From: Acinetobacter phage YC#06
DNA length: 48,885 nt
Strand: one strand, 5' to 3'
Sequence record: ON391949.1
Of this stretch, positions 13,362 through 48,885 are shown piece by piece. The notes under the pieces were generated by a model. It was not told the DNA's origin. It saw only the letters and a list, made by a program, of their open reading frames with translations, and did no database searches. Each line of letters starts with the position of its first letter. Position 1 is the stretch's first letter. The translations under genes and the position numbers were made by a program.

Positions 13362-14809
13362 GTGATGTAACTTTTCAACATGCTGAATATGTTAAGAACT
13401 TGCCATACTGGCAAAAACTTGATGATGTTTGTGAAGGTGAAGATGCAGTTAAGGCTAAAGGTGAAAAATATTTGCCGATGCCAAATGCACATGATAAATC
13501 ACCTGCAAATAAAAGCGCTTATGAGGCTTATCTTACCCGTGCAGTCTTTTATGAAGTAACAGGGACTACATTAAATAGTTTAGTTGGTGCAGCTTTTGCA
13601 ACCGATCCAAGTTTTAAATTTCCTCCGGAACTTGCTCATTTAGAACGTAATGCAAATGGTGCTGGTTTAAGTACTTATCAATTGGCTCAAAATGGAATTC
13701 GCCATTTATTGAAGCATTATCGTTGTGCTTTATATGTAGATTATCCTGATGTGCCGCCAGCTCGTAATCTAGCGGAATTTAAAGCACAAAAAGCCTATCC
13801 GATGATTCATTTACTAAATGCCCTTGATGTAGTGAATTGGGATTCAGTAATGATCGATAACCAGAAAAAGCTTTGCTTAGTGGTTATACGTGAATTTAAG
13901 TCTGAGCGCGGTGCTGATGGATTTAGTAAAACCGAACAAGAGCAATATCGTGTACTTCGTTTAGAGCAAGAGGGAAATGGGGAATATATTTATTCCGTTC
14001 AGGTGTACACAAAGGGTGAAAAGGGTAACTGGGTTGGCGGAGAGAAGAAGTTTCCAACAGATTACAACGGGAATTTCTGGACCTATATACCTTTTACATT
14101 TGTAGGTGCTATTGATAACTCTGAAGAGATTAAAAAGCCTCCATTGCTCCCATTGGCTAATCTTAATTTAGCTCATTATAGAGATAGTGCGGACTTTCAA
14201 GAGTCCGTTTTTTATATGGGCCAACCTCAATATTATGCGAAGGGTGTTAATTGGGAGTGGTATGACCAAGCCAAGAAACGTGGCATCTACATTGGAGCGA
14301 AAGTACTTTTGCCTTTACCTGAAAATGGTGGTTTAGGAATTGTACAAGCCGACCCTAATACTCTTGCCCGGGAAGCGATGAAAGATAAGTGGGAAAAAAT
14401 GAAGGAGATGGGGGCGCGTTTAATTGAGAAGGGCTCGGGAAGTAAAAAGACCGCTACCGAAGCGAATAGTGATGACGCCGTTCAGCATTCAGTTCTTTCG
14501 CTCTGTGTCGTTAATATGAATGAAGCCTTGTCAGCAGCATTACGATGGGCTGCTAAGTTTGTAACGCCTAATGTGGATGTTCTGACTAAAGATGAACTGA
14601 TGTTCGAAATTAGTCAGGAATTTAACAAGCAAGGTTATTTAGCTGAGTTGGCTCGTCAATTGTTTGAAGCAGCTTTACAAGGTAGATCTTCATTCAAATC
14701 TTGGTGGGAATACAACCAAACAGGAATGTTCCCTAAACAAAAATATGAAGAAGAGCTTCAGAATGTTGAAGCAGAGCAAGATGGGACTTTAAATCAAAAG
14801 GTAGAGTGA
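13358..14809 (+). CDS. portal protein
   Basis: 483 aa directly after terminase with ATGA overlap. Confidence 0.75.
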   Translation: MSDVTFQHAEYVKNLPYWQKLDDVCEGEDAVKAKGEKYLPMPNAHDKSPANKSAYEAYLTRAVFYEVTGTTLNSLVGAAFATDPSFKFPPELAHLERNANGAGLSTYQLAQNGIRHLLKHYRCALYVDYPDVPPARNLAEFKAQKAYPMIHLLNALDVVNWDSVMIDNQKKLCLVVIREFKSERGADGFSKTEQEQYRVLRLEQEGNGEYIYSVQVYTKGEKGNWVGGEKKFPTDYNGNFWTYIPFTFVGAIDNSEEIKKPPLLPLANLNLAHYRDSADFQESVFYMGQPQYYAKGVNWEWYDQAKKRGIYIGAKVLLPLPENGGLGIVQADPNTLAREAMKDKWEKMKEMGARLIEKGSGSKKTATEANSDDAVQHSVLSLCVVNMNEALSAALRWAAKFVTPNVDVLTKDELMFEISQEFNKQGYLAELARQLFEAALQGRSSFKSWWEYNQTGMFPKQKYEEELQNVEAEQDGTLNQKVE

Positions 14810-21928: not shown

Positions 21929-22282
21929 ATGAGCAATTTTGTTTTTAAGCGTGGTGACACATTCAACTTGAACTTGCAGCTGGTTGATATGGATGAAACC
22001 CTGCAGTATCCACCGGATGATGTTCGCCGTGCAATTGATCTAACCGGTTACACCTTTACTTCACAGATTAAAGCTTTGGCTGATGGAGCAGCTGTAGCTA
22101 CCTTGACTTGTGCTGCATTAAATCAAAGTACACAGAAGGGATGGCTGAATATTAAATCTAGTGCAAGCACTGCAACTTGGCCTTTAGGGCTGTGTCAGAT
22201 GGATATTAAAGCTGTAGTTAGTGGTACTACGCAGCACACTGAAACTTTGACTTTCCAAGTGATTGACGGGGTAACAGCATAA
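21929..22282 (+). CDS. Ig-like/fibre-associated small protein
   Basis: Follows terminator 21887-21909. Confidence 0.35.
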   Translation: MSNFVFKRGDTFNLNLQLVDMDETLQYPPDDVRRAIDLTGYTFTSQIKALADGAAVATLTCAALNQSTQKGWLNIKSSASTATWPLGLCQMDIKAVVSGTTQHTETLTFQVIDGVTA

Positions 22283-23277
22283 TGGCAAATCTTGTTTTTA
22301 AATTTAGTTGGGATCACCGGCCATTCCCGTATAACTCGGCTCAGGGAAAACGGCAATTCATGCTGCCATTCGCTTCAGGCATTCCTAATCTGGCACCAAA
22401 CTTTTCGCAGGTCCAAGGTACTGCTGCAGTCTCTCAAGGTGGTACTGGGGCAACCACTGCAGCAGAAGCGCGAAATAATCTTGGTGCTGCTGAAAAAGGT
22501 GTAAATACTGACATTACTGAAATGAAAGGTTTAGCTACTCCACTTTCAGTTGCGCAAGGTGGAACGGGTGCTTCTTCTACAGCAGGTGCTCGTTTAGTTC
22601 TTGGTTTAGGTGATATAGGGACTTCTGGATTTTTTGGAAGTAAAATTAGCGAGCTATATAACAAGGTGTCGGTTCCACAATGGATAGCTGTATTAGGTGA
22701 TAACAAGTTCACTTTCCTATCAAGTGGCGACTGGCAAGCGGGGAATACAAAGAACCCACTTAATATGCCTAGCCGATATGGTTCTTTAATGTCGTATTTG
22801 GGATCAAGCTCATATGGAACGTATTCATGGCAGATTTTTAAGGCAGTATTGGGTGGACAGCTTTCCTACCGATATGGGGCAGGAAATAATGTCTGGACTA
22901 CATGGGGACACATTAAAACCAGCTTTAATACATCAGTCGATGCAAATGGGTTCTTAAAATCGGCATCACCAGTAGTGAAGTTATTTAATGATCATATTGA
23001 ACTTAATAGTGATGCAGAAAAGCAACCAATCGAATTTAAGAAAGTTGATGTAGGCGATTATTTAATTAAGGGCTCTTTAGTCTTTGCACAGGAAGGTTGG
23101 TATATCGAAGCACCTAAAGACGCAAACGGCAACACAATCGTTGCAGTAGTGTATGACACCCTAGAAAATGGTGACATCTCAATTAAAACTTACAAGCGTA
23201 AGTTTGATTTTGAACTTGCTGCTGTTGTGGCAGATCACGAGAACCCAATGGACATTCCAGAAGGCAGTAGTGTATGA
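22282..23277 (+). CDS. tail fibre protein, N-terminal/main part (frame ends inside 121-bp duplication)
   Basis: Repeated QGGTGA(T/S) motifs typical of phage fibre N-termini; stop created in second repeat copy. Confidence 0.55.
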   Translation: MANLVFKFSWDHRPFPYNSAQGKRQFMLPFASGIPNLAPNFSQVQGTAAVSQGGTGATTAAEARNNLGAAEKGVNTDITEMKGLATPLSVAQGGTGASSTAGARLVLGLGDIGTSGFFGSKISELYNKVSVPQWIAVLGDNKFTFLSSGDWQAGNTKNPLNMPSRYGSLMSYLGSSSYGTYSWQIFKAVLGGQLSYRYGAGNNVWTTWGHIKTSFNTSVDANGFLKSASPVVKLFNDHIELNSDAEKQPIEFKKVDVGDYLIKGSLVFAQEGWYIEAPKDANGNTIVAVVYDTLENGDISIKTYKRKFDFELAAVVADHENPMDIPEGSSV

Positions 23278-23384
23278 CACCCTAGAAAATGGTGACATCT
23301 CAATTAAAACTTACAAGCGTAAGTTTGATTTTGAACTTGCTGCTGTTGCCATTGTAGCTGATCTCGAAAATCCACTTGATATTC
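23143..23384 (+). repeat. tandem duplication, period 121 bp (first 85 bp identical, last 36 bp diverged)
   Basis: gcagtagtgtatgacaccctagaaaatggtgacatctcaattaaaacttacaagcgtaagtttgattttgaacttgctgctgttg at 23143 and 23264. Confidence 0.9.
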
Positions 23385-23557
23385 CAGAAGGCCGCTGGAT
23401 TGATATCCGTCTGCATGAAGAACCTGAACCAGAGCCTGAAGAGCCGTTGAGTGAAACACCAGTGGATTTCCAGCCGACTAACTTATCTCAGGCAGTTGCT
23501 GCAGCCATGAATGGCGTGGAACCGCCAGAAATCTCAGAAACAGACGAAACACTTTAA
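23168..23557 (+). CDS. tail fibre C-terminal segment in shifted frame
   Basis: Re-reads the duplicated VVYDTLENGDISIKTYKRKFDFELAAV peptide then continues to an acidic C-terminus. Confidence 0.4.
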   Translation: MVTSQLKLTSVSLILNLLLLWQITRTQWTFQKAVVYDTLENGDISIKTYKRKFDFELAAVAIVADLENPLDIPEGRWIDIRLHEEPEPEPEEPLSETPVDFQPTNLSQAVAAAMNGVEPPEISETDETL

Positions 23558-23560
23558 TAA

Positions 23561-23583
23561 CCCGCTTAAACAGCGGGTTTTTT
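23561..23583 (+). terminator. rho-independent terminator after tail fibre
   Basis: cccgcttaaacagcggg + T6. Confidence 0.6.
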
Positions 23584-23609
23584 ATTGCCTAAATTTTGGA
23601 GAACCATAA

Positions 23610-24527
23610 ATGAGTTCAGGCGCAAAAATTCGATTATATGCTTGTGAGGAAGCAGTTTTAGGAACAACTCCTGCAAATCCAGTCTGGTACACCGTTCGCC
23701 GTGTTACTGATAGTTTGACTGAAAATGTTACTACTGAAGATAGCAGTGAAGTAGTTGATTCACGTTTTCGCCAAGGCGCTGTTGTAACGGAAGCCGAAGT
23801 AACTGGTCAACTAGAGTTTGAATTATCACTAGGTACCTTTGACTTATTCTTAAATGTTCTCGCTTTCAATAACTGGGCTGCAAATGCTTTAAGTTTTGGT
23901 GGTGGAGTACGTAAGTCTCTTACCTTGGTAAAAGTCTTTGAAGATATTGGTCAAGTCTTTATTTATCGTGGTATTCAAGTGAATACAGGTGAAATGACGA
24001 TCCAGACCACAGGCAAAATCACTGGTAACTTTGGTTTAGTAGGTAGCTCATTTACGCGACAGCAGGTTAATCCTGTTACAAATCCTATTCCAGCATCGAC
24101 TCGCCCTCTGGTGAGTATGCCAAATGTTGAAAAGCTACTTATTAATGGTCAATCAATTCAGGGTAAAGCTTGTCTGCAGACACTTACCATCAACTTTAGT
24201 AATAATCTGGAAGCGATCCGTTGTATCGGTTCTGGTAAGTACACGCCTGAGTTTTACTTAGAGAAAATGATGGATATTGGCGTAAATGCTAATTTCATGT
24301 TTTCAGCAACATCTGCTTCTTGGATTGATGCTATTAAAACCCGTGATGTATTTACATTGACCTTCGATATTACAGATACCAAAGGCAGTAAGTACTCGTT
24401 TAACTTCCCGCAACTTGAAGTTAAGGAAGCAAATCACCCTGATGGTGGTGGCGATGACATTATTACAATAGATATCAATTTTGCCCAAGTGCGTACCAGT
24501 CCAACGATTGTACGTGCTCTTGTGTAA
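23610..24527 (+). CDS. major tail (tube) protein
   Basis: 305 aa immediately upstream of the G/GT chaperone pair. Confidence 0.6.
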   Translation: MSSGAKIRLYACEEAVLGTTPANPVWYTVRRVTDSLTENVTTEDSSEVVDSRFRQGAVVTEAEVTGQLEFELSLGTFDLFLNVLAFNNWAANALSFGGGVRKSLTLVKVFEDIGQVFIYRGIQVNTGEMTIQTTGKITGNFGLVGSSFTRQQVNPVTNPIPASTRPLVSMPNVEKLLINGQSIQGKACLQTLTINFSNNLEAIRCIGSGKYTPEFYLEKMMDIGVNANFMFSATSASWIDAIKTRDVFTLTFDITDTKGSKYSFNFPQLEVKEANHPDGGGDDIITIDINFAQVRTSPTIVRALV

Positions 24528-24545
24528 TCAACTTATTCAGTAACA

Positions 24546-24573
24546 AAGCCTATGGAAACCCATGGGCTTTTTT
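24546..24573 (+). terminator. rho-independent terminator after major tail gene
   Basis: gcctatggaaacccatgggc + T6. Confidence 0.5.
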
Positions 24574-24596
24574 ATTTCTAAAAATTAGAGGTTGTT

Positions 24597-25112
24597 ATGG
24601 CTTTAAAAGTCGGAATTATTAAAAGCTCAGACGTATCAAAATGGTGTGAATACAAGGGTGCTGATGGCGATGTACAGGCTGAGTTCAAAGTCCGTGGTAT
24701 CGCTTATAAGCCTTTTCAGGTAGCTATTGAACGGGCAGGAAACCAGATCTCGTCTAAAGGCTATGATGTGATGGTCAAAGATGAAGATGCCAAGCTTTAC
24801 CACGAGCTTTTAATGGATGCATGCGCGGCCCACTTAATCGAAGACTGGAAAGGTGTGGTATTTGCCGAAATCGTAGACGGTAAAACTGTTGAGTCCGAAA
24901 AGCCATATACACCTGAGAATGCCTCAAAGCTTCTTAATCTTGGTGATATTGGTATTTCAATCTGGCTATTCATTAAAGAACAGGCCCAGAAGATTCAGGA
25001 AGACGCAGACAAGGACAAGGCTTTAATTCTGGGAAAGTCATGGAGCTCTACAAATACCAAAAAACGTATGCGTCGAAAACGCCGCACGAAATCGAGCAAA
25101 TCAAGTTCTTAG
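24597..25112 (+). CDS. tail assembly chaperone (lambda gpG analogue)
   Basis: Precedes tape measure; contains slippery heptamer near the 3' end. Confidence 0.6.
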   Translation: MALKVGIIKSSDVSKWCEYKGADGDVQAEFKVRGIAYKPFQVAIERAGNQISSKGYDVMVKDEDAKLYHELLMDACAAHLIEDWKGVVFAEIVDGKTVESEKPYTPENASKLLNLGDIGISIWLFIKEQAQKIQEDADKDKALILGKSWSSTNTKKRMRRKRRTKSSKSSS

Positions 25113-25234
25113 GATTCAGGAAGACGCAGACAAGGACAAGGCTTTAATTCTGGGAAAGTCATGGAGCTCTACAAATACCAAAAAACGTATGCGTCGAAAA
25201 CGCCGCACGAAATCGAGCAAATCAAGTTCTTAGG
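24993..25234 (+). repeat. perfect tandem duplication, period 121 bp, spanning the frameshift site and the G stop codon
   Basis: 24993-25113 identical to 25114-25234. Confidence 0.95.
25031..25037 (+). other. programmed -1 ribosomal frameshift slippery heptamer G GGA AAG (second copy at 25152-25158)
   Basis: Identical to lambda G/GT slippery sequence; correct frame relationship G(0) to T(-1). Confidence 0.6.
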
Positions 25235-25481
25235 TGGCCGTATTCCGGATCCGCCAGAATATTCGTATGCGGCCGACTCTATTCTTTCGGCATTTAGTAC
25301 TATTGCCAGATCCAGACGGTATGAGCAGGGTATCCCGTTATCTTTAGATCAGCAGGCAATCAATGTCTATGCAGAGCATAATGATTTACCCGTGGCTGCT
25401 CATATTTTTAATGACTGTATTTTTGCTTTGGATAACCTGTTTCTGGATGAGTGCCATAAGAAGTTTAAGGCAAAAAAATAA
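25161..25481 (+). CDS. tail assembly chaperone T-extension (expressed as G-T fusion by -1 frameshift)
   Basis: The -1 frame from GGGAAAG reads directly into this ORF (..GKVMELYKYQKTYASK..). Confidence 0.55.
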   Translation: MELYKYQKTYASKTPHEIEQIKFLGGRIPDPPEYSYAADSILSAFSTIARSRRYEQGIPLSLDQQAINVYAEHNDLPVAAHIFNDCIFALDNLFLDECHKKFKAKK

Positions 25482-25657
25482 AATGTTTTAAAGCTTTATT
25501 CCTTAAAGCTTAATCAAGTGCGGGATATTTTAAGAAATAAACTATATACCGCACTTTTAGCATAGTATTTCTAAAATCCTTAATAGCAAGTTTGTTAAGT
25601 TGTTGAATTTTAATATTTTAAATTTCAAGGCTAGGTGTTTAAGAATGTAATTTCTAG

Positions 25658-25686
25658 TTGACATAAATGTCATTAAGAAATATTAT
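25658..25686 (+). promoter_or_regulatory. sigma70-like promoter TTGACA-17-TATTAT with palindrome AATGTCATT in spacer
   Basis: Consensus -35, 17-bp spacer, near-consensus -10, upstream of the TA-like pair. Confidence 0.45.
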
Positions 25687-25791
25687 ATTTTCAATAGTAA
25701 ATTATATCGTACGAAATATTGTTGAATCGCACGATTACTATTAATGTTAATTTTATTTAACTGATTATCTTATTCTATTTTGGAAATTATT

Positions 25792-25941
25792 ATGAAAGCT
25801 CCAGCAATGTTGGTAACACCAACTTTTGGTGTTGATTCATCTCAAAAAATTCTTCAAGAAGCTCAGAAAAAAATTACGCCAGCTCGTAAATCACGCCTTG
25901 AGCAGCTTGCTCAAATAGCAAAAAACGCATTTAAAAATTAA
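25792..25941 (+). CDS. 49-aa small ORF, putative antitoxin partner of GNAT toxin
   Basis: ATG 25792, stop 25939-25941, 15 bp upstream of GNAT gene; below 60-aa track cutoff. Confidence 0.35.
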   Translation: MKAPAMLVTPTFGVDSSQKILQEAQKKITPARKSRLEQLAQIAKNAFKN

Positions 25942-25956
25942 TTATGAGGTTTCAAT

Positions 25957-26502
25957 TTGTCCACAGAGATTAATATTTCTGAGGTCGAGTTACGAAATTT
26001 AGATTCAGTAGAAAAGCATCTTTATCAAGATTTTTGTTGTGAGCGTGAAGAGCTCAATACGTTCTTGATTGAAGATGCTTTTGATTATCATAATTATGGT
26101 TTAACCCGAACTACTTTGGTATTTCATAACGATGTACTGATTGGCTATTTTAGCTTGTCAGCTGATAAAATTGTGCTCACTCAAACAGAAATTGATGAAT
26201 TATCTTTAAATGGGGAATTTAAAGTAACTTATTTCCCTGCAGTAAAGATTACAAAACTTGCTATTCAGAAAGCTTTTGCTGGCAAGGGGTATGGTAGGCT
26301 TATTTTGGAATTAATTGAAGGCCTAGTGTATGGTCAACATATGGCTATAAGATTTTTGACTTTAGATGCTGTAAATGAGGAAAAAGTTCTTAAGTTTTAT
26401 GAGCGAAATGGATTTAATGAAAGTCTCCATGAAGCTAGACAGCAAAGACAAAAGCAAAATAGGCAAACGATATTAATGCATAAAGATATCTTTAGTGAAT
26501 AA
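25957..26502 (+). CDS. GNAT acetyltransferase, TacT/AtaT-like toxin family
   Basis: Alignable by eye to TacT: LIGYFSLSADKIV, KLAIQKAFAGKGYGRLIL (motif A), FLTLDAVNEEKVLKFYERNGF; TTG start after GAGG. Confidence 0.65.
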   Translation: MSTEINISEVELRNLDSVEKHLYQDFCCEREELNTFLIEDAFDYHNYGLTRTTLVFHNDVLIGYFSLSADKIVLTQTEIDELSLNGEFKVTYFPAVKITKLAIQKAFAGKGYGRLILELIEGLVYGQHMAIRFLTLDAVNEEKVLKFYERNGFNESLHEARQQRQKQNRQTILMHKDIFSE

Positions 26503-26523
26503 ACCACCTTCGGGTGGTTTTCC
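26501..26523 (+). terminator. rho-independent terminator after GNAT gene
   Basis: aaccaccttcgggtggtttt. Confidence 0.55.
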
Positions 26524-26581
26524 TTTATGTGACATTTAATGATCAGTTTGCTAAATTACCCCCAAATATGAGGGTATTTTT

Positions 26582-27343
26582 ATGCTTAAGGACTATCTTG
26601 GGCCTGCCGCTGAACATAAGCACAAAGCAGAACAAGCCATTAAAGAAAAGAGATTTGATGATGCTTGGCGTCATCTTAATGAGCAAAAAATAAATTATTT
26701 TCAGCACGCAAAACAATGTAATTTTACTGAAAAGCAAACTTTGGGGCTTGATGCGGTTGTGCACATCACAATGGGCAATTTACTGAGAAGAGAAGGTAAG
26801 CATTTACAAGCTTTGTATCACATTGCTTATGTTTATAAGGTAGGTAAGCTAGAGAACCCCCAAAATGACAGTAACGATGATAGGCTAAGAATCTACTATA
26901 AAAGAGCAAAGAAAGATGGTGGATTCGAGAACTTTAAACAAGGGCTTGACCTTTTTCCCAGTTATGATTATCAGTCAGTGCAACATTTCACAAGCAGCCT
27001 TTTAAATTCTGGAGACGTAAAACAAGGAGCTATTACTTCTCCTCAAATTGAGGAAAAGCCTATTACAAAAATCCCAGAAATTAATAAGAACGCTATAAAT
27101 AATAAGTTTTTGGCTGAACGCAAGAAAAAAAAGGAAGAACATATTGGGATTCCTCCTCCATTAAAAAAGCCCGAGAAGAAGCAAGTTATTCAATATGAAA
27201 AGACGAATAGCCAAATAAGTGCAACACCTGTTAGCAGTAGTTCAAAAACTGAAGGATGTAGGAGTTCGGTTTCAGGGTTCTTTATTGCAGCGACTTGCGT
27301 GGTGATAGGTTTAATTCTGCTTGTTTGGTTGCTTTCATACTAA
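26582..27343 (+). CDS. C-terminally tail-anchored membrane protein (moron)
   Basis: Single TM helix FFIAATCVVIGLILLVWLLSY at extreme C-terminus. Confidence 0.45.
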   Translation: MLKDYLGPAAEHKHKAEQAIKEKRFDDAWRHLNEQKINYFQHAKQCNFTEKQTLGLDAVVHITMGNLLRREGKHLQALYHIAYVYKVGKLENPQNDSNDDRLRIYYKRAKKDGGFENFKQGLDLFPSYDYQSVQHFTSSLLNSGDVKQGAITSPQIEEKPITKIPEINKNAINNKFLAERKKKKEEHIGIPPPLKKPEKKQVIQYEKTNSQISATPVSSSSKTEGCRSSVSGFFIAATCVVIGLILLVWLLSY

Positions 27344-27408
27344 AATAGTAAACTAGAGAATAAACACGCTACATGTTAAATTTTACTCAAAGATAATGGT
27401 TTGGGAAT

Positions 27409-27786
27409 ATGAAAAAGATTATTTTATTAGGTTTAATATTAGGTTTAGCAGGGTGTATGTCTACTGCTAATTTTTTTGAAGTGCAAGCCACCTCTGTTCA
27501 GAATAGCGGTTATTGGACCGGGCAATATGATCGATTAGTAGGAACATTAAAGTTAAATTCCGATGGAACTGGTGTTATTTGTCAGGATGGAATGGGAACA
27601 GCGAGAGTAATGTCTGTTAAAAAATCAAATGATAAACTCTATTCACAGGATGGCAGCTTCTGGAAAGTGCAAAATGAAACACTCAACTCTATGAAATTAA
27701 ATTATGCAATTGGTGGTGGTTATGAAATGAAAAAAGATGATGATTTATCTTTGGCAACACCAGCATGTAAAGAAAAATTGAAATGA
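27409..27786 (+). CDS. lipoprotein (moron)
   Basis: MKKIILLGLILGLAGC lipobox. Confidence 0.6.
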   Translation: MKKIILLGLILGLAGCMSTANFFEVQATSVQNSGYWTGQYDRLVGTLKLNSDGTGVICQDGMGTARVMSVKKSNDKLYSQDGSFWKVQNETLNSMKLNYAIGGGYEMKKDDDLSLATPACKEKLK

Positions 27787-27834
27787 ATTCAAAATGATTT
27801 GTTAAAAATTTGACTTAGATCAGGTTTTTTATTT

Positions 27835-28410
27835 TTGATTAATGACCGCCTTTTGGCGGTTTTTTATTGCCTAGAGGAAAGTAAAATGGCACAAGAATCC
27901 CGTTTGGTCATTGTTATTGATTCGCAAAATGCTGAACGTAATGCGCGTAATCTAGGCAATGAACTTGTTAGCATTGAACGTAAAGGTGAATTTGCATCTA
28001 AGTCTATGGACAGCTTGTCTGTAGCCACCAGAGCTTTAGCTGGACACATGGCTGGTTTATTAACAGTAGGTTCAGCCATTTCAAAGATGGATACATATAC
28101 TGGATTACAAAATCGCCTTAAGTTAGTCACTAACAATCAAGTTGAACTAAATAAAGCAACGGAAGACACTTTCCGAATTGCTCAAAAAACCTATTCAGCT
28201 TGGGATTCTGTGTTACAGGTTTACCAGCGTTTTAGTGATAATGCCAAAACTTTAAACCTCACAATGGATGACACAGCACGTTTAACTGAAACAGTTTCTA
28301 AAGCTGTAGCAATTAGTGGTGCAAGCGCAGAAGCTGCTGATGCAGCTTTAGTTCAGTTCGGGCAGGCCTTGGCTAGTGGAACGTTGCGTGGACACTGCTC
28401 GACTAACTGA
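27835..28410 (+). CDS. tape measure protein N-terminal fragment (true start likely ATG 27887)
   Basis: Ends just inside second copy of 121-bp repeat; the duplicated peptide DTARLTETVSKAVAISGASAEAADAALVQFGQALASGTLRG is shared with next ORF. Confidence 0.5.
   Translation: MINDRLLAVFYCLEESKMAQESRLVIVIDSQNAERNARNLGNELVSIERKGEFASKSMDSLSVATRALAGHMAGLLTVGSAISKMDTYTGLQNRLKLVTNNQVELNKATEDTFRIAQKTYSAWDSVLQVYQRFSDNAKTLNLTMDDTARLTETVSKAVAISGASAEAADAALVQFGQALASGTLRGHCSTN
27844..27866 (+). terminator. rho-independent terminator before tape measure
   Basis: gaccgccttttggcggt + T6. Confidence 0.55.
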
Positions 28411-28511
28411 AACAGTATCAAAAGCAGTTGCGATCAGTGGTGCAAGCGCAGAAGCTGCTGATGCAGCTTTAGTACAATTTGGGCAGGCTTTGGCAAGCGG
28501 TACATTACGTG
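28270..28511 (+). repeat. tandem duplication, period 121 bp, copies differ only at synonymous positions
   Basis: Copy at 28270 and copy at 28391 encode identical 41-aa peptide with about 21 synonymous differences. Confidence 0.9.
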
Positions 28512-31500
28512 GTGAAGAACTCAACTCAGTTATGGAACAAACACCAGCTCTAGCAAAGGCTATTGCTCAAGGCATGGGGATCACCGTAGGAGAGTTGCGT
28601 TCAGTTGCGGCTGAAGGAAAAATTACTTCACAAGAAATCGTTAAAGCGCTTAAAAATGTCCAAGATGAAGTTGATGCTCTTTTTGCTAAAACTGACATTA
28701 CAATTGGTCAATCATTAACTCTACTTAATAATGAAATTACTAAATTTGTAGGAGAGGCTGGTAAAGGAAGCGGAGCAGCACAGGCTTTATCAGGATCGAT
28801 TCAGTTATTAGCAAATAATTTGAATTTAATTGCAGACAGTGCATTTGCCATAGGTATTGGCTTAATGACAAAAGCCGTTTTAACAAAAACGGTTGCTGTA
28901 CAAGCGAGCATTGCTGCGTCAACCAAACAAGTGTTTGCCACAATTGCTGAACGTAATGCAAATATTGCAGCAGCAAAAGCTGAAGTGGAATCTGCGCTTG
29001 CCGAAGCACAAAGTACACAGGTGACACTAACGAACATCAAAGCTACTCATGCTCAGATCATGGCAGAAATAGAACTCGAAAAAGTTCGTTTAAAAGCCCA
29101 AATCACTGAACAAGGTCGCACGGCTACCATCACACGAATGGCTCAGCTTGGACGATTACAAGCTCAAGTTGCGTTAGAGGTTGCTGCTGCGGAAACAGCA
29201 CAGTCTGCAGCTTCATCTAGATTATCAGCAGCCTTAACAGCGCAATCTGTTGCTACTAGCCGTTTAGCTTTAGCAAAGTCAGCGCTTATGGCGATTTTTA
29301 GCCCAATGGGTTTAGCAATTGCAGCAACAGCCGCATCTTTCTATTTACTAAGCAGCAGTTCGGATGAAGTCAAAGAGTCTCTTGCAACACAATCTGACTC
29401 GGTTAGTGATTTAACAGATAAGTACATAAAGTTAAATACTGTGCAAGCATTAACAGAGGGTGTGCGGTTACGCAAAGAGATTGAGCAGCAAAATGATGCA
29501 ATTGATGATGCTAGTGGAGCTATCAAACGTTTTGCTTATATCCAAAAGGAATTATTTAAATTATCTGGCAGTGATTATGAAGATTATCAAAATGCCATTA
29601 AGTCTATTGCTACAGGTGCAAGCGATGCAGGTGATCTCTTAAAAAAGATGATTTCATCTGGTCGTTTTAGTCAGACTCAAATTGATAAACTTATTGAGTT
29701 CTCTAGTGTAGTAGCAGAATCAAAAAATAAGATTGAGCAGGGTAATACTGCTCTAAAACTCTTAAATGCTACTTCTGGACAACATGTTGAGGTAACGGCC
29801 GAATCAATTAAGCAATTAACTATTCAAACCAACTTAACAAAAGTTGCTACTCAAAATTTCACTGACATGAAAACACAAATGCTTGATTCATTACGAGCAC
29901 AAGTGGAATTCATTCGGTTAAATGGTGGTAGCGAAGAACAAGTTAAATCGTTGAATAAGGTAATCCAGGCATATTCTTTAAATCAAATTTCAGCAACTGA
30001 TGCTGTGGACAAGTTCAACAGTACTGCCAAAGTTCCTGCTGAAAATATCAAGGGGTTACAGGATTATGCTACTAAAACGGATCAGTCTAAAATTGCGTTG
30101 AATCAGGCTAATGCTGAGCTGAAGAAACAAAACGACTTACGTAATGAGTACCTAAAACAACATCAAACTGTACTTGGTGCTCAACAAGGAGAAACAAATG
30201 AATTAAATAACCAAGTCGCTGCACAAGAAAAGTTAAATAAGTTACGAGACAACGCCAACAAAGATATTCTGAAAAATGATTTTCTTATAAAAAACACTAA
30301 GGCATTTGGTGGTGGCGAAAAGGGTCTTGATAAGGCGCGTGCGGCATCAGAGTTTTATACCGACAATAAAATTCCGATGACTAGAAGTTTAACTAGTCAG
30401 GAAGCTGCAATTTTTGAGGCTTGGTATAAGAAGCAGAAGGAAGCCAAGGACTTACAAGAAAGTATTACCGAATCTAGCAGAAAGCAAACAAAAGAGGTTG
30501 AAAAACAAACCAAAGAGTCTGCCAAACAAGCTGTTCTACTTGCTGGAAATGATGAGCGAGTGAGAAATATGCTACGAGTGTATCTGGCATTTCGAAATGC
30601 AGGTTTAGGCGATAAACAAGCTCGTGTAATGACAGCTCAAGTTGGACGAGAGACTGATTTTAGAAATGAGGCAATGTTTGGTAGCCATAAGGATGAAAAT
30701 AATGGTTATACAAATACTGGATTTTTATCATGGCAAAAAAGTCGCTCAACTAAATTAATGCAGTCTTTACAAGGGCAAGGAGTCTTGGATAAAAACGGTA
30801 AAATCCAGCAAACTCAAGATGCATTAGATGCAATGGCTAAACACGCTGTGCAAGAGGCGATGACCGATAAAAGTTATAGTAAATCTAAAGCAGCTCTTCT
30901 TAATGACGATTTAGACTATCGAAGTTTAGAGAGAATTGTTGCCAAAAATTTTGTTGGCTGGGACTATGACGGGAAAAAGCTTGGCAAAGCTAAAGCTTCA
31001 CAGCATTTAGCCAAACAAGACTCTTACTATAATCAGCTTAGTAAAATTTTAGGGGATAACCCCGAAGCAGCCTCAAAAGCAATTAGTGATCTTTCGAAAT
31101 TCGAAGATGAAGCATATAAGGCACGTGCAAAAACTCTTGAGGAAATTAAGCAGCTCCAAGCAACATATGATTCAGAAACAGTTGCTAGAAGCAAAAAACG
31201 TGAGGAGGAAATCAACAAAGCAACCATTTTAGGTCAATCAAATTTAATCCCAAAAATTAATGAGCGTTATGATGCTGAAGATAAGTTAGCTCAGAAGCAA
31301 TTTGATTTTGAAGTAAATGGTTATAAGTGGACTGAGAAGCAAAAGCTTGAGTACACATATGAAATCAATTCTTTGCGATTAGTTGCTGAAGGCAAACTCT
31401 CTGAAGATCAAAGAAAGGTTGCTTTAGATGGCCTGGAATTGCAAAAGCAGCAAGAGTTAGGATTACTAAAACTTGCTCAGGAACAGCGGTTGTTTCAGGC

Positions 31501-32902
31501 TGAGCAATTCATGCTGGGAGAAATGGAGCGTATCAAAAAACGTTATGCGCTTGAGTATGATGAAATATCAAAAATCACTGATCTTGAAGAGCGTAGAAGG
31601 AAGATGAGTGCATTTCAGGCTGATTTTATTCGTAATGGTGTGGGGAATCCAACAATTGATCAGTATGATACCTCTAGTCAGTTTCTTAAATCGACAAACT
31701 ACACCAAGCCCAAGCAAACCAATATGCAAGTATTGGATGAAGATTACGCTCAAACTTATCAAAAGTTGAAAGATAATCTTGCAGCTGTTTTGGAGTCTGA
31801 AAAAGCTAGTTATCAGGAACGATTGGAGGCGGAGCGCGTATTCAAAGAAGCAAGACAGCAAATGGATAATGAGTACCACCTGAAGGCGATTGATGCAAGA
31901 AAAGCAGATCACGACAGTCAATTGCAATTATACAGTCAGATGATTTCATCTGCTTCAAGCACATGGGGAGGTTTAACTCAAATTGTTAAGGATGCGCGTG
32001 GTGAAAATTCACGCTCTTTCAAGGCAATGTTTATAGCTCAACAATCCTTTGCTATTGCTTCTGCGATTATCTCTGCTCATTTGGCAGCTACACAAGTAGC
32101 TGCTGATGCAACGATCCCATTTTTTGGGGCAAAAATTGCGGCTTCAACCGCCATGCTTGCTATGGGATATGCAAATGCTGGTTTGATTGCTGGGCAAACA
32201 ATAGCTGGATTCTCAGATGGTGGTTACACTGGATCTGGTAGAAAATATGAACCTGCAGGTATTGTCCATAAAGGAGAGGTGGTATGGTCCCAAGAGGATA
32301 TTAAACGCTGGGGCGGAGTTGGTTTAGTTGAGAAAATGCGTAAGAGTGCAAACCCTGAAGCTTTTCTCAATAACAATGCCTCGGCAGATAGTGTCATGCG
32401 CCGTGCAATGATGAGTTCTAATGCCTTTATAGAAAGCCAAAAGCAGGCTGACATCTTTAATCAACCAGTTCAAGATACTCAGATTATCTATAAGGGTAAT
32501 AGAGACACACCTAAGTTAGCTTCTTCGGCAAATTCTGACCTGTTCCATGATGGCAAGGTCTACTTCTCATCCAATGGTATAGTTCAGGATCGCTCAAATC
32601 TGGATGATGTTCAGGACTTTACTTTAGGACGTACTTCACGCCCTCAAGCTGAGATTATGCCTTCAATTGAGCAATCCTCTCCAACTATCAATTTCAAGAT
32701 TGAAGTCGTGAATCAAGTCAGTGGTGCAACTGTTGAAGCTGAACAACTGGATGAGCAAACAGTCCGGATCATTGTTAAAGATGAACTGGATAAGCAGCTT
32801 CCAAGAACGGTACCTAAGCTTGTAAGTGATCAAATCGCAAATCCAAACTCAACCATTAGTCGGTCTTTGACTGAGAATACGACAGCAAGACGGAATCGAT
32901 AA
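28376..32902 (+). CDS. tail tape measure protein
   Basis: 1508 aa, long coiled-coil regions, C-terminal hydrophobic/Gly-rich region. Confidence 0.85.
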   Translation: MERCVDTARLTETVSKAVAISGASAEAADAALVQFGQALASGTLRGEELNSVMEQTPALAKAIAQGMGITVGELRSVAAEGKITSQEIVKALKNVQDEVDALFAKTDITIGQSLTLLNNEITKFVGEAGKGSGAAQALSGSIQLLANNLNLIADSAFAIGIGLMTKAVLTKTVAVQASIAASTKQVFATIAERNANIAAAKAEVESALAEAQSTQVTLTNIKATHAQIMAEIELEKVRLKAQITEQGRTATITRMAQLGRLQAQVALEVAAAETAQSAASSRLSAALTAQSVATSRLALAKSALMAIFSPMGLAIAATAASFYLLSSSSDEVKESLATQSDSVSDLTDKYIKLNTVQALTEGVRLRKEIEQQNDAIDDASGAIKRFAYIQKELFKLSGSDYEDYQNAIKSIATGASDAGDLLKKMISSGRFSQTQIDKLIEFSSVVAESKNKIEQGNTALKLLNATSGQHVEVTAESIKQLTIQTNLTKVATQNFTDMKTQMLDSLRAQVEFIRLNGGSEEQVKSLNKVIQAYSLNQISATDAVDKFNSTAKVPAENIKGLQDYATKTDQSKIALNQANAELKKQNDLRNEYLKQHQTVLGAQQGETNELNNQVAAQEKLNKLRDNANKDILKNDFLIKNTKAFGGGEKGLDKARAASEFYTDNKIPMTRSLTSQEAAIFEAWYKKQKEAKDLQESITESSRKQTKEVEKQTKESAKQAVLLAGNDERVRNMLRVYLAFRNAGLGDKQARVMTAQVGRETDFRNEAMFGSHKDENNGYTNTGFLSWQKSRSTKLMQSLQGQGVLDKNGKIQQTQDALDAMAKHAVQEAMTDKSYSKSKAALLNDDLDYRSLERIVAKNFVGWDYDGKKLGKAKASQHLAKQDSYYNQLSKILGDNPEAASKAISDLSKFEDEAYKARAKTLEEIKQLQATYDSETVARSKKREEEINKATILGQSNLIPKINERYDAEDKLAQKQFDFEVNGYKWTEKQKLEYTYEINSLRLVAEGKLSEDQRKVALDGLELQKQQELGLLKLAQEQRLFQAEQFMLGEMERIKKRYALEYDEISKITDLEERRRKMSAFQADFIRNGVGNPTIDQYDTSSQFLKSTNYTKPKQTNMQVLDEDYAQTYQKLKDNLAAVLESEKASYQERLEAERVFKEARQQMDNEYHLKAIDARKADHDSQLQLYSQMISSASSTWGGLTQIVKDARGENSRSFKAMFIAQQSFAIASAIISAHLAATQVAADATIPFFGAKIAASTAMLAMGYANAGLIAGQTIAGFSDGGYTGSGRKYEPAGIVHKGEVVWSQEDIKRWGGVGLVEKMRKSANPEAFLNNNASADSVMRRAMMSSNAFIESQKQADIFNQPVQDTQIIYKGNRDTPKLASSANSDLFHDGKVYFSSNGIVQDRSNLDDVQDFTLGRTSRPQAEIMPSIEQSSPTINFKIEVVNQVSGATVEAEQLDEQTVRIIVKDELDKQLPRTVPKLVSDQIANPNSTISRSLTENTTARRNR

Positions 32903-32906
32903 TGAA

Positions 32907-32934
32907 CAAAACCGCCTTCGGGGGCGGTTTTTTC
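32907..32934 (+). terminator. rho-independent terminator after tape measure
   Basis: aaaccgccttcgggggcggtttttt. Confidence 0.65.
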
Positions 32935-33059
32935 AAACTTTTTAAGATTCAAAAATCTTCGTAATACTTAGAATGATTCTGAGAGAAATGATTAATTTCA
33001 TGTATCTTATAAAATAAATTCAGTAAGATTGTAGATATATCTTTTATCTTTATTAAGAC

Positions 33060-33818
33060 ATGAAAACACCAATTCCAAAAACCAAAATGGATGAGTTAGG
33101 TTCGCTGATAAACGGCTTCAAGCCTTTTGAAGTCCTTAGTGAGTTTAATTATGTAAGGTGTATGCGGTTACTTGATAGTAGTAAACAGACTGCACCTAAG
33201 GATCTTTGGCATGTTATGAAAGGGCTTATAGAGTTAAATGCTAATAATTTAAGTGAAGCAAATGAGGCAGCATTATATGTTTTAAAACATTCCAATAATT
33301 TTAGTTGTTTAAGGAATGCAATTTATATTTTTAATCATACTTTTGATTTTGATAATGTATGTAAAACAACAGATAAAATTGTAAAGCTAATTGAATTACA
33401 AAAAATGGATTCCAAAGGAATCTTACCAAGAGATCTTGGACTTATTTTCTTACTTAATGGTGAGTTATGGGCTAAGGACTCATCATTTTATAGTGAAGCT
33501 GTGTTTAATAACAGTTTTGATCATCACACTGTACTGGCTGATATCAATGATCGACTAGATATAAGTGAAAATGATTTCAAAAAGATCTCTTCTATTATCA
33601 AGAATACCGTTTTAAAGAATAATGCGAGAGTACTCAACCATGACTATAGCTTTATTGATGAAGAATTTTTATTACTTATATATATAAATAAACCTGTAAA
33701 AGAGATCATGAAAATTAACGAGGAAATTATTGAATTATGTTTTAAAGAAGGTCTTTTGACTGCATTTAACAAGATCTCATATACATTCGTTCCTTATAGT
33801 GAGGTTCTGAATGGATAA
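33060..33818 (+). CDS. hypothetical protein, first gene of two-gene moron
   Basis: AT-rich, own promoter region, translationally coupled to next ORF. Confidence 0.45.
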   Translation: MKTPIPKTKMDELGSLINGFKPFEVLSEFNYVRCMRLLDSSKQTAPKDLWHVMKGLIELNANNLSEANEAALYVLKHSNNFSCLRNAIYIFNHTFDFDNVCKTTDKIVKLIELQKMDSKGILPRDLGLIFLLNGELWAKDSSFYSEAVFNNSFDHHTVLADINDRLDISENDFKKISSIIKNTVLKNNARVLNHDYSFIDEEFLLLIYINKPVKEIMKINEEIIELCFKEGLLTAFNKISYTFVPYSEVLNG

Positions 33819-34197
33819 TAAGCTTTTAGAATATTGTAATGAAATAGCATCTGCTGAAACCTCATACCCAGATTTACAATTAAGAAATGTTATCGGTAGA
33901 GCTTATTACTTCACATTTCATGAAGCAAAATATCATCTTGAAGATAGATTGAGGTGGAAGCCAACTTCAGAAAAAGGTGGGGTTCATGCAAGGTTATATA
34001 GCAGTCTTCTCAGTTATGATTCAAATGCTAATGAACAAACTAAAATAAATGCAGAGCTAGTTTATGCAAAGATCAATTCTTTAAAAAAATTAAGAACTAG
34101 GGCTGACTATAAAATGGAAATAAAGATTACGCGCGAACTTGCAAATTTTAGTATTGAAGAAGCTAAAAGAATTTCTGAGTTATTTGAACTAATTTAA
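33811..34197 (+). CDS. hypothetical protein with HEPN-like Rx6H motif
   Basis: GRAYYFTFHEAKYH; ATG overlaps upstream stop. Confidence 0.35.
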   Translation: MDNKLLEYCNEIASAETSYPDLQLRNVIGRAYYFTFHEAKYHLEDRLRWKPTSEKGGVHARLYSSLLSYDSNANEQTKINAELVYAKINSLKKLRTRADYKMEIKITRELANFSIEEAKRISELFELI

Positions 34198-34211
34198 TTT
34201 ACAACATTTGA

Positions 34212-34240
34212 AAAAACCGACCTTAAATGGTCGGTTTTTT
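34212..34240 (+). terminator. rho-independent terminator after two-gene moron
   Basis: aaccgaccttaaatggtcggtttttt. Confidence 0.65.
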
Positions 34241-34258
34241 ATTACCTGAAGGAAAGTT

Positions 34259-38961: not shown

Positions 38962-38977
38962 ATCTTAAAAGAACTTT

Positions 38978-39002
38978 GAGCACCCAATTCGGGTGCTTTT
39001 TT
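38978..39002 (+). terminator. rho-independent terminator after gpJ analogue
   Basis: gagcacccaattcgggtgcttttt. Confidence 0.6.
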
Positions 39003-39028
39003 ATTGCCTAAATTTTCTGGAGATATAA

Positions 39029-39418: not shown

Positions 39419-39419
39419 T

Positions 39420-39440
39420 GCCGCCTTCGGGCGGTTTTTT
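39420..39440 (+). terminator. rho-independent terminator after holin
   Basis: gccgccttcgggcggtttttt. Confidence 0.6.
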
Positions 39441-45401: not shown

Positions 45402-45473
45402 CTTTAAGCCTCCAACAACTTGTTACGTTCGATGAAGCCTCTCGAGCACACGCGCCACACGTACACCCGTTAG

Positions 45474-46683
45474 GGAAACGCTGATCAATGAGCCTGTCGT
45501 CCGCATAACGGACGAGGCAGGTTGCAATTTTCAGATTGACGTAGGAATTTGACGACATGCGAGGTGAGTTTCGCTCGTATTCGGGCCTCACTTCCCGCGT
45601 TTTTCACACACATGACGGATTGCTCCCATGAGTCGACAACAGCTGATTTTTCGCGATCACCAGGTTCGCCAGCGCGAACAGACTGAACAGCTGTGCCGTG
45701 TTCCTGGCTAGACCCTTGTAGCGCACCTTGCGATGACGAAACAGGTTCTTCACGACATGAAACGGATGCTCGACCCGGGCGCGGATCTGCGCCTTGGTTC
45801 GCTCGACCGCGATCACGAGGTCCTTCAGCGGACCTTCCTGCATCGCCCTGATCTTTCCGCGCTTGAGCGCCACGTGCCACTTCACCGTCTTGCCCTTCAT
45901 CTCCTCGCGCTTGTCCACGCCGGTGTAGCCCGCATCGCCAAACGCTTCCTGCTCATGACCGTGCAGCAGGGCGTGGGCCTGCGATACGTCCGGCTCGTTG
46001 GCCGCCGTGGTGACCACGCTATGCACCAGACCCGAGTCGGCGTCGACGCCGACATGGGCCTTCATGCCGAAATACCAGTCGTTGCCCTTCTTCGTCTGAT
46101 GCATCTCCGGGTCACGGCTCTTCCCGGCGTTCTTCGTGGACGGCGCAGCCTCGAAGATCGTCGCATCCACCAGCGTGCCTTCCTTCATCATCAGCCCGCG
46201 CTCGCACAACTCGATGCCGATCTCGTCGAACAGCTTTCGCGTCAGTGCGTGCTCGACCAGCAGGCGCCGGAATTTCAACAGCGTGGTGGCGTCCGGCACG
46301 TTCTCGCGCGCCAGGTCGATGCCCGCGAAGGCGCGCATCGCGATGCTGTCGTAGAGCGCATCTTCAAGCCCTTCGTCCGACAACCCGTACCACTGCTGCA
46401 GCAAGTAGATCCGCAGCATCCGTTCCAGGCCAATCGGCGGCCGGCCACGCTCGCCCTTCGGGTAATACGGCCCGATCACCGACAGCAGCCGCGACCAAGG
46501 GACGACCTTCTCCATCTCGGCCAGAAAGCGTTGACGCTTGGTCACCCGCTTCTTGCCCGCACTTTCCGCTTCCGCAAAACCGATCTGCCGCTGCATCGTC
46601 GTGGGTCCGTTCCGTGAGCTTCTTTCTACAACGCCCTTGGCCTCGTCAGCGATGACCGCCAAGCCGAATTGATCAGTGTTTCC
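45474..46683 (-). mobile_element. IS5-family insertion sequence, 1210 bp, 16-bp imperfect IRs GGAAACRCTGATCAAT, TSD TTAG (45470-45473 and 46684-46687)
   Basis: 65% GC island in a 40% GC background; terminal inverted repeats and flanking 4-bp direct repeat matching IS5 YTAR target. Confidence 0.8.
45604..46662 (-). CDS. IS5-family DDE transposase
   Basis: Alignable along full length to E. coli IS5 transposase (…LRIYLLQQWYGLSDEGLEDALYD…DPEMHQTKKGNDWYFGMKAHVGVD…RARVEHPF…). Confidence 0.85.
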   Translation of the reverse strand: MAVIADEAKGVVERSSRNGPTTMQRQIGFAEAESAGKKRVTKRQRFLAEMEKVVPWSRLLSVIGPYYPKGERGRPPIGLERMLRIYLLQQWYGLSDEGLEDALYDSIAMRAFAGIDLARENVPDATTLLKFRRLLVEHALTRKLFDEIGIELCERGLMMKEGTLVDATIFEAAPSTKNAGKSRDPEMHQTKKGNDWYFGMKAHVGVDADSGLVHSVVTTAANEPDVSQAHALLHGHEQEAFGDAGYTGVDKREEMKGKTVKWHVALKRGKIRAMQEGPLKDLVIAVERTKAQIRARVEHPFHVVKNLFRHRKVRYKGLARNTAQLFSLFALANLVIAKNQLLSTHGSNPSCV

Positions 46684-47349
46684 TTAGCGAGAAGGACCAC
46701 TCTGTACTCCGGTCTCACTATTTTTTCTAAAAAGATAATGTTTGAAGCAATTAAATACATTCCAAAAATTTCGACCTTGGACTACATTTTCGTACTTGAT
46801 CCAAGCGCTAAAAGTAACTTTTTGGTACAACCTTGAGCTGAAATCTGGTTCAAGGTTGAACGTTAAAGTAGAGTTGTTCTCTAGCCTATAGCATTCTTTT
46901 TGACCTGTGACGTGGTTTTCAGGTAATTTTTCAATTACAGCTCCAACCGTCTTGGATTTTATCCATAGATTCCGTCCTCCCACCTTCATTTTTGAAAATT
47001 CTTCACGCAATTTCCCAGCTTCAGATACAACTAAAGTCTTATCTGCTTTATCCTTGGTTGCGTTCAGGATTTCCTGACGGATAGAGCCAGCTCGCACCTC
47101 AAATTCAGCCTGACTCAACTTCTGATTTAGCTTGTTCTGCGTGTCTGTCTCAAGCCTCTTCACAGATTGCCGGATATTTTCAGCAGTCACATTGAGTGAG
47201 CTGATATCCACTTTGGTTCTAAGCCCTTCAGTCAAGCTTCTCACACCAGCGTCGAGCGAGTTGGCTCGTTGTTTAAAGGTCGATTCTACTGTTGAAATCT
47301 GCAACTCAACAAGCGCGTAGGGCACGTCTACAAGAAAGCATTTATGCAA
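46684..47349 (-). pseudogene. 5'-truncated ORF (beta-rich C-terminal domain, possibly fibre-like); its first 15 codons are antisense T7 RNAP sequence
   Basis: The ORF's own stop codon TAA overlaps the IS target duplication; homology break at about 47302. Confidence 0.3.
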
Positions 47350-47846
47350 GTTGTCGAGGCTGACATGCTCTCTAAGGGTCTACTCGGTGGCGAGGCGTGG
47401 TCTTCGTGGCATAAGGAAGACTCTATTCATGTAGGAGTACGCTGATATCTGCATCGAGATGCTCATTGAGTCAACCGGAATGGTTAGCTTACACCGCCAA
47501 AATGCTGGCGTAGTAGGTCAAGACTCTGAGACTATCGAACTCGGATATCAATACGCTGAGGCTATCGCAACCCGTGCAGGTGCGCTGGCTGGCATCTCTC
47601 CGATGTTCCAACCTTGCGTAGTTCCTCCTAAGCCGTGGACTGGGATATCTGGTGGTGGCTATTGGGCTAACGGTCGTCGTCCTCTGGCGCTGGTGCGTAC
47701 TCACAGTAAGAAAGCACTGATGCGCTACGAAGACGTTTACATGGATATCGTGTACAAAGCGATTAACATTGCGCAAAACACCGCATGGAAAATCAACAAG
47801 AAAGTCCTAGCGGTCGCCAACGTAATCACCAAGTGGAAGCATTGTC
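47303..47846 (+). pseudogene. bacteriophage T7 gene 1 (RNA polymerase) internal fragment, about residues 95-277, carrying GATATC hexamers at 47444, 47544, 47644, 47744
   Basis: Near-exact DNA and protein identity to T7 RNAP except at the hexamers (APE to GYQ, ITG to ISG, PEV to DIV, and a frameshifting change at the first). Confidence 0.75.
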
Positions 47847-48458
47847 TTCACCGAGATTGGCCTGAAGACCTTAGGGTCCAAGGATGCTGGTGTCCGCGCA
47901 ATCGCTCAAGACCTCGTGCGCTCTCCAACAGGGATGCAATCAGGGTCTAGCGGTAAGTTCGGTGCGACCGCTTCGGATATCCACGAGCGGCTCCACGCTA
48001 CAGACCAACGGATGTATAACCAGCTGTATGACGCTGTTGACCGTGCCATGAAGGACCCTGAGTTCTCCATCGGTGAGCAGAAGATGTCCCGTAAGGCTAT
48101 CCGTCAGGAAGTGTACAAGCGTGCTGCCTTGGCGATTGAGCGCCCAGAGCTACAGGCTGACTTGACCAAAGGTGAACGTGAGGTAATGGACTTGCTGAAA
48201 GAGCACTTCGATACCAAGCGTGAACTGATGGAACAGCCCGGTATCTTTGGCAACGCCAACGCCGTAAGCATCTTCCCCGGTAGTCGTCATAAAGGAACCT
48301 ACGTACCTAACGTGTACGATAGGGGCGCTAAGGAGCTGATGACTCAGAAGCTGGGTGGACCCGAAGGACTCTCATACGGGTCATCTGGTAGAACAGGCTG
48401 TACTTCAGCGCGTGCTTACCGTCTGCATCACGTGCCGTCTGGTAGTCCTGTCGGATAA
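47847..48458 (+). pseudogene. T7-like gp16 (internal virion protein D) internal fragment fused in frame to the RNAP fragment
   Basis: FTEIGLKTLGS...LVRSPTGMQSG.SGKFGATASDIHERLH...RAALAIERPELQ...HFDTKRELME...SIFP.SRHKGTYVP.VYDR matches T7-group gp16. Confidence 0.5.
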
Positions 48459-48870
48459 CCTCGTCACGGATAACCAAGCGGTGACTTGCCAGTACAGGCT
48501 CAAGGGTATCGCAGATACGGGCCTCTTTCATACCACGAGCACGAATCTCTTCGAGTTGCGCTGGGTGATGCTTCAGGAGCACAGGCTGGAACACGTTACC
48601 GAACATACCGTCACCGAAGTTACTCTCGAAGACCACAGTCTGCACCTGCCACTGTTTGGCTTTCTTAGCGAGGAACTCAAGGGACTTCTCTTCGTAACCA
48701 CGGGTACCTCCAGCGTCCATCAAGTAGATGTAACCGTTGAGGGTGTACAGCACGCACCAACCAGTTTCATCCTTACCGCGACCACTGGGGTCAATGACCA
48801 GAATCTTACCCTGATACGCACCAGTGTTACTGGAGGCTGTATGGAAGGAGTAAATCTCGTCACCCTTCAT
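48328..48870 (-). pseudogene. T7-like gp19 (terminase large subunit) C-terminal region fragment, antisense to the gp16 fragment
   Basis: [17 protein letters not shown] ... [10 protein letters not shown] ... GMKEARI resembles T7 gp19. Confidence 0.5.
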
Positions 48871-48885
48871 GCCAACGTTAGGAAG

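Follow-up and report, generated by a model that had tools for sequence, protein, structure and literature searches.

The 48,885-nt sequence record ON391949.1 of Acinetobacter phage YC#06, which was analysed over its full length and is termed the window throughout, contains three tandem pairs with a period of exactly 121 nt, starting at positions 23143, 24992 and 28270. These repeats are probably the seams of a composite that was stitched by coordinates, i.e. by a scripted or in-silico procedure: the positions of the seams and the identities of the alleles flanking them are directly observed, and from these we infer the procedure itself. Irrespective of whether a script or an assembler left them behind, the repeats are technical and do not constitute a real biological feature. 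The composite would comprise four colinear Vieuvirus blocks laid end to end, here designated A (1-23263), B (23264-25112), C (25113-28390) and D (28391-45413).

Three tandem pairs with a common period

The three seams break the genes of the tail fibre and the tape measure protein and, in the tail assembly chaperone, the long form that is predicted to arise by frameshifting. Since 121 equals 3 x 40 + 1, the reading frame is shifted at each of them. An initial sequence-only reading, which concerned the fibre pair, had claimed two further tandem events of the same period; these are recovered as the pairs at 24992-25233 (copies 100% identical) and 28270-28511 (84% identity, 19 mismatches). In 20 shuffled versions of the window the longest exact direct repeat measured 14-18 nt, and hence none of the three pairs is attributable to chance. 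Microhomology at the seam junctions amounts to 1-2 nt. Neither the block lengths (23263, 1849, 3278 and 17023) nor the seam positions relative to SNPs and gene ends display any regularity, barring the stop codon at 25112.

The segment spanning window positions 21000-33000 matches 49 Acinetobacter phage records, the best of which is YMC/09/02/B1251 (Vieuvirus B1251, 45,364 bp) at 99.0% identity. A BLAST comparison of the whole window with B1251 yields four pieces:

Window 1-23265 = B1251 1-23261 (piece 1, starting at base 1 of the record)
Window 23264-25113 = B1251 23139-24988 (piece 2)
Window 25111-28391 = B1251 24865-28146 (piece 3)
Window 28391-45413 = B1251 28025-45048 (piece 4)

The four pieces are colinear with B1251, and at each seam the reference steps back by 122-124 nt, which corresponds to a step of 121 nt lengthened by 1-3 nt that agree by chance. 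The B1251 record itself contains no tandem repeat.

The seam in the tail fibre gene

The fibre seam and the reading frames around it are composed of the following elements:

23143..23263, plus strand: copy 1, 121 nt, closing block A; 100% identical to B1251 23139-23259
23264..23392, plus strand: copy 2, opening block B; 85 nt as in copy 1, then an Ab1656-2-type allele
22282..23277, plus strand: truncated tail fibre ORF, 331 aa, with the C-terminus ...DIPEGSSV before the stop, which lies 14 nt into copy 2
23168..23557, plus strand: ORF in another frame that encodes, from copy 2 on, the real C-terminus of the fibre (from the ORF list and the deletion test)
23343..23354, plus strand: small second seam inside copy 2, with the hexamers CTGTTG (B1251-type) and CCATTG (Ab1656-2-type) adjacent to each other; +6 nt, i.e. 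2 codons

The sequence-only reading had described an 85-bp exact repeat followed by 36 bp of diverged homology, together making up a unit of 121 bp, and both a repeat finder and inspection of the sequence agree with it: the exact direct repeat comprises 23143-23227 and 23264-23348 at a spacing of 121 nt, and the subsequent 36 nt are homologous and diverged. It had further held that the fibre ORF meets a stop inside copy 2, that the C-terminal part is readable solely in the other frame, and that the gene encodes a tail fibre. The coordinates of the two ORFs listed above bear out the first two points. As to the third, in-silico removal of either copy yields one uninterrupted 384-aa protein, in which 23168-23557 is fused in frame, and this restored protein matches the tail fiber protein family phrog_1836 (PHROG 1836) from end to end (E 2.6e-152), with its residues 216-338 corresponding to the Pfam domain PF25670 ('Phage tail protein C-terminal domain').

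Within copy 2, the period-121 unit runs to 23384 and the homology with copy 1 extends to 23392. The diverged part is offset by 127 rather than 121 nt because copy 2 possesses 6 extra bases. These 6 nt, at 23343-23354, are missing from all seven aligned relatives, which are otherwise colinear, and a 34-mer across this small seam has no match in IMG/VR. The quasi-duplication sits at the point where copy 2 switches from a B1251/LPAB65-type to an Ab1656-2-type allele. That 121 and 6 add up to 127 at this seam may be a coincidence. Beyond the shared 85 nt, copy 2 aligns as the allele found in Ab1656-2, PhabP_R1 and Attikon1. By these alignments, the fibre pair reads as two alleles set in tandem and not as a duplication followed by later divergence.

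The seam in the tail assembly chaperone

The second seam consists of an exact pair:

24992..25112, plus strand: copy 1, 121 nt, closing block B; 100% LPAB65-type; its last 3 nt are the stop codon of ORF 24597-25112
25113..25233, plus strand: copy 2, 121 nt, 100% identical to copy 1, opening block C; B1251-identical from 25164
25031..25037, plus strand, and again 25152-25158 in copy 2: slippery heptamer G GGA AAG in the zero frame of ORF 24597-25112, as read from the sequence

Both copies are of the LPAB65 type, and the change to B1251-identical sequence occurs 51 nt into copy 2. ORF 24597-25112 (171 aa) is not truncated; instead, the seam separates it from the extension that it has in the -1 frame. 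When the ORF is fused in a model, by a -1 shift, to the frame downstream, the product matches the tail assembly chaperone family phrog_313 over residues 1-252 of 254. The G GGA AAG heptamer, which is also the slippery heptamer of the lambda G/GT chaperone genes, is the likely site of the -1 frameshift from which the long form of the chaperone arises. Accordingly placed, the seam leaves the short form intact and destroys the long form predicted from this slippage. In the B1251 annotation the short form is the only one given and is labelled 'hypothetical protein'.

The seam in the tape measure gene

The copies of the third seam are two different alleles:

28270..28390, plus strand: copy 1, 121 nt, closing block C; LPAB65/Ab1656-2/PhabP_R1 allele with 19 differences from B1251
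28391..28511, plus strand: copy 2, 121 nt, opening block D; B1251 allele
27886..28410, plus strand: N-terminal tape measure fragment of 174 aa with its stop in copy 2; ORF 28376-32902 contains the rest of the gene

The segment 27858-28390 is 100% identical to PhabP_R1, Ab1656-2 and LPAB65, and from 28391 to about 32700, i.e. over more than 4 kb, there are 0 differences from B1251. Of the 19 mismatches between the two copies, 18 affect the third base of a codon and one the first, and the longest identical run shared by the copies is 38 nt. As with the fibre seam, removing either copy in silico gives a single uninterrupted ORF.

Haplotypes among the relatives

The surroundings of the three sites were aligned with the corresponding regions of B1251, LPAB65, Ab1656-2, PhabP_R1, Abau_Attikon1, R3177 and MRostami-2023a. 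At the sites that they cover, all eight relatives compared (these seven phage records and one IMG/VR contig) are single-copy; the comparison with related fibre genes, which the sequence-only reading had proposed as a check, therefore finds one copy absent in every aligned relative. The IMG/VR contig shares with the window a haplotype switch at 25150-25240, is otherwise 87% identical to it and is single-copy. The strings across the three junctions, one per seam (ATGGACATTCCAGAAGGCAGTAGTGTATGACACC, GCAAATCAAGTTCTTAGGATTCAGGAAGACGCAGACAAGG and GCTAGTGGAACGTTGCGTGGACACTGCTCGACTAACTGAAAC), have no exact match in IMG/VR; likewise, those of the fibre and tape measure seams have none in GTDB genomes and those of the fibre and chaperone seams none in JGI metagenomes. 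Two ORFs owe their C-termini to the seams (the 331-aa fibre and the 174-aa tape measure fragment), and neither product occurs among the genes called in public assemblies.

Every seam falls on a switch between the B1251-type and the LPAB65/Ab1656-2-type haplotype. The window contains many further haplotype switches that are free of any duplication, and stitching hence accounts solely for the three large seams and perhaps for the 6-nt one. The differences between the window and B1251 are natural alleles, for the most part synonymous third-position changes, and the blocks rest on real sequence data, which is a point against the stitching account. Random or planted point mutations can be dismissed as the source of the divergence between copies: the differences are mostly synonymous and 100% identical to other records. 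Acinetobacter temperate phages of the B1251 group are highly mosaic. Among the phage collection and the IMG/VR contigs compared there is no natural genome with the haplotype of the window; 23 IMG/VR contigs carry the same 59-nt string of the portal gene, but their overall identity to the window is no more than 75-98%.

The portal gene itself displays two patches, 14110-14221 and 14584-14725, with 12 and 17 differences, almost all of which are synonymous. In the portal region all phage records listed, B1251, R3177 and Ab1656-2 among them, deviate from the window to the same extent, 3.9%, and the patches exactly match much more divergent IMG/VR prophage contigs. Across the window most clusters of differences span less than 200 nt, and these short clusters could be either a very fine natural mosaic or the consensus of mixed reads.

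Several of the public relatives are of draft quality. MRostami-2023a (OQ031491.1), designated an 'UNVERIFIED partial genome', has six N in its tape measure region, around position 7560, that align with the 121-nt unit. R3177 (YMC11/11/R3177, KP861230.1 / NC_041866) has an exact 162-bp tandem duplication at 42930-43255 (2.0 copies, 100%), which covers a terminator, a ribosome binding site and the start of the tape measure gene, the CDS being annotated in two parts (43011-43124 and 43173-47483). This duplication is absent from both B1251 and the YC#06 window and may be an uncollapsed contig overlap in the public record.

Other repeats in the window

Two further kinds of repeats were observed. 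An intergenic cassette occurs at 27846-27888, 34221-34263, 39421-39463, 23578-23612 and 38997-39031; it consists, in this order, of a GC-rich hairpin, a run of T, ATTGCCTA and a ribosome binding site, and ends on the next start codon in four of its five copies. It looks like a reused module of terminator and translation start placed between tail genes. Three short arrays of an 11-nt unit (5607-5635, 5823-5855 and 6088-6124), the last of which is followed by seven units of CAGGAA (6124-6165), are situated partly upstream of the early replication region and partly within it. Iteron-like in appearance, they are presumably common to B1251, from which the window shows no differences there.

The composite tail

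The Acinetobacter backbone ends at 45413, and the final 316 nt of B1251 are absent. This end lies 10 nt inside the next gene and, relative to the minus-strand gene at B1251 44713-45036, 12 nt upstream of its start codon. The remaining 3.5 kb are a chain of pieces from unrelated sources:

45414..48885, no strand assigned: tail of unrelated fragments, from sequence matches
45466-46687: ISBmu23 (Burkholderia), preceded by 52 nt of unassigned GC-rich sequence and with a TTAG target duplication; 99.9% identical to phage KS5
46694-47301: Streptococcus pneumoniae phage PblB fragment, prophage-derived
47302-47846: T7 gene 1 fragment, from alignment to T7
47847-48371: Klebsiella phage internal virion protein fragment
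48371-48885, minus strand: Klebsiella phage terminase fragment
47444..47749, plus strand: series of GATATC (EcoRV site) at 47444, 47544, 47644 and 47744, with a spacing of exactly 100 nt, in otherwise T7-identical gene 1

The sizes of the fragments descend from 1280 through 608, 545 and 525 to 515 nt. In the alignment to T7, the first GATATC is accompanied by an insertion of 7 nt and the other three overwrite 6 bases each. GATATC is the sole 6-8-mer in the window that forms an arithmetic progression of at least four members, and the edited T7 stretch is absent from IMG/VR. This periodic edit is plainly artificial, being the product of neither biology nor an assembler. A tail drawn from several organisms, together with the edited T7 fragment, identifies the window as a composite.

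Origin of the repeats

In the coordinate-based stitching that we consider probable, each block would begin 121 nt before the point at which the previous block stopped, in homologous coordinates, and the overlap would be left uncollapsed. Blocks A and D are of the B1251 type, and blocks B and C carry LPAB65/Ab1656-2-type alleles at their ends. Where the sources agree, such joining would give identical copies, as at 24992-25233, and where they differ it would place two alleles in tandem, as at 23143-23384 and 28270-28511. Several observations are in line with this: upon removal of a copy both the fibre and tape measure ORFs and the colinearity are regained, the overlaps are equal in length, the source changes at the seams, and the copies are distinct alleles that are present in the population. 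The sequence-only reading had favoured a technical origin over biology and had suggested, as another possibility, that the partial divergence stems from two alleles of a mixed population that were concatenated. The former is upheld by the single-copy state of the relatives, the recurrence of the same length at haplotype switches and the frames restored by deletion, and the latter by the fibre seam, where copy 1 is of the B1251 and copy 2 of the Ab1656-2 type, and by the tape measure copies, which represent two haplotypes. Artificial joins of a related kind have been described in two settings. Artificial k-mer overlaps of 127 bp on SPAdes phage contigs (PMC5923482) resemble the present repeats in being direct repeats of a fixed, non-biological length that result from the joining of pieces and are to be trimmed before annotation, and the pair at 24992-25233 is exact as they are; however, the YC#06 repeats are internal rather than terminal, measure 121 and not 127 nt, and are non-identical in two of the three pairs. 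False (heterotype) duplications, which assemblies acquire where haplotypes diverge (Kelley & Salzberg 2010, PMC2864568; Ko et al. 2022, PMC9516828), similarly consist of adjacent alleles of one locus that mimic a duplication and feign gene disruption or gain. These were described in diploid eukaryotes and are variable and usually much larger, unlike the fixed 121 nt in the phage-sized composite of YC#06.

The principal competing account, which is possible though distinctly less probable than scripted stitching, is a laboratory assembly artefact: two related Vieuvirus genomes and contaminants, present together in a lysate or sequencing run, would have been assembled on a de Bruijn graph with k = 121, the contigs, which share k bases with their neighbours in the graph, ordered on B1251 and joined untrimmed, and leftover contaminant contigs appended by size. 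The number 121 is odd and lies inside the usual range of k for assemblers, which thus permits this value. The exact pair at 24992-25233 and the tail pieces in descending length, the order in which assemblers list contigs, likewise resemble assembler output and speak against a script; to these may be added the documented k-length overlaps on SPAdes contigs and the R3177 GenBank record with its own exact 2.0-copy duplication splitting the tape measure annotation. That duplication is comparable in occurring in a Vieuvirus and in the tape measure gene, and differs in that it occurs once, measures 162 bp and has identical copies. Against the assembler stands the fact that two of the three overlaps are non-identical: the tape measure copies have 19 mismatches, and the fibre copies are exact over 85 nt before the other allele sets in. 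An overlap taken from a graph must be identical, and a k = 121 graph could not have linked the tape measure copies because their shared runs do not exceed 38 nt; the identity expected of a de Bruijn overlap is found at 24992-25233 alone. A pure k = 121 graph is therefore discarded as the sole mechanism, there being no common 121-mer between the haplotypes at 28270-28511 or 23143-23384. Scenarios of tips or bubbles at the fibre seam are rejected as well: they predict either a 157-nt period or a start of copy 2 lying 36 nt upstream, and neither is seen. Moreover, the 6-nt seam has no k-mer explanation, an assembler does not place GATATC at 100-nt intervals in T7 gene 1, and block A begins at base 1 of the B1251 record. 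The non-identity of the overlaps, this starting point and the artificial GATATC edit are the reasons for preferring joining by coordinates over joining by a graph.

Biological accounts fare considerably worse. It is improbable that the pairs are genuine tandem duplications in a defective or recombinant prophage, produced by slippage or unequal exchange between co-resident Vieuvirus genomes. The alleles of both copies are natural, the mosaicism of this phage group would provide the material, and absence from the molecule cannot be proven from sequence alone; nevertheless, such an origin needs three independent events of exactly 121 nt, all of which break genes required in tail formation, with a mere 1-2 nt of microhomology at the junctions. 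Furthermore, the differing copies are not descendants of one another, each being identical to a different extant haplotype, the junctions occur in no relative and in no public contig searched, and the window around them is an evident composite. Even less probable are hybrid genomes of two co-resident Vieuvirus prophages, in which copy-choice or strand transfer would restart a fixed 121 nt behind the point at which the template was left and thereby generate heteroallelic tandem pairs; if this were true, the unrelated tail and the edited T7 fragment would need a separate explanation. The probability is negligible that a diversity-generating retroelement (DGR), or some other system of programmed repeats, acts on the 3' part of the fibre gene. 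DGRs, such as that of Bordetella phage BPP-1, possess template and variable repeats, and the present repeat of ~120 nt, of which one copy has diverged and which lies where the C-terminus of a fibre is encoded, superficially recalls these: the BPP-1 Mtd pair, too, measures roughly 100-150 nt, has one diverged copy and occupies the 3' end of a gene for receptor binding. In contrast to it, the 62 products annotated in the colinear B1251 genome include no reverse transcriptase, the mismatches at 28270-28511 are not confined to adenines of one copy (copy 1: T9 A5 G3 C2; copy 2: A9 T6 C3 G1), the copies are tandem and break the frame, and the 121-nt period recurs in two genes that are not receptor genes.

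Consequences for the reading of the genome

The significance of the seams in this record is one of quality control only. Taken at face value, the sequence would imply a phage whose tail fibre and tape measure are both split and whose chaperone frameshift is broken, with foreign genes and a terminal insertion sequence; all of these stem from the way in which the pieces were joined. For annotation, for calls of gene gain or pseudogenes and for inferences on host range from the fibre, the single-copy sequence should be used and the window should be treated as a composite.
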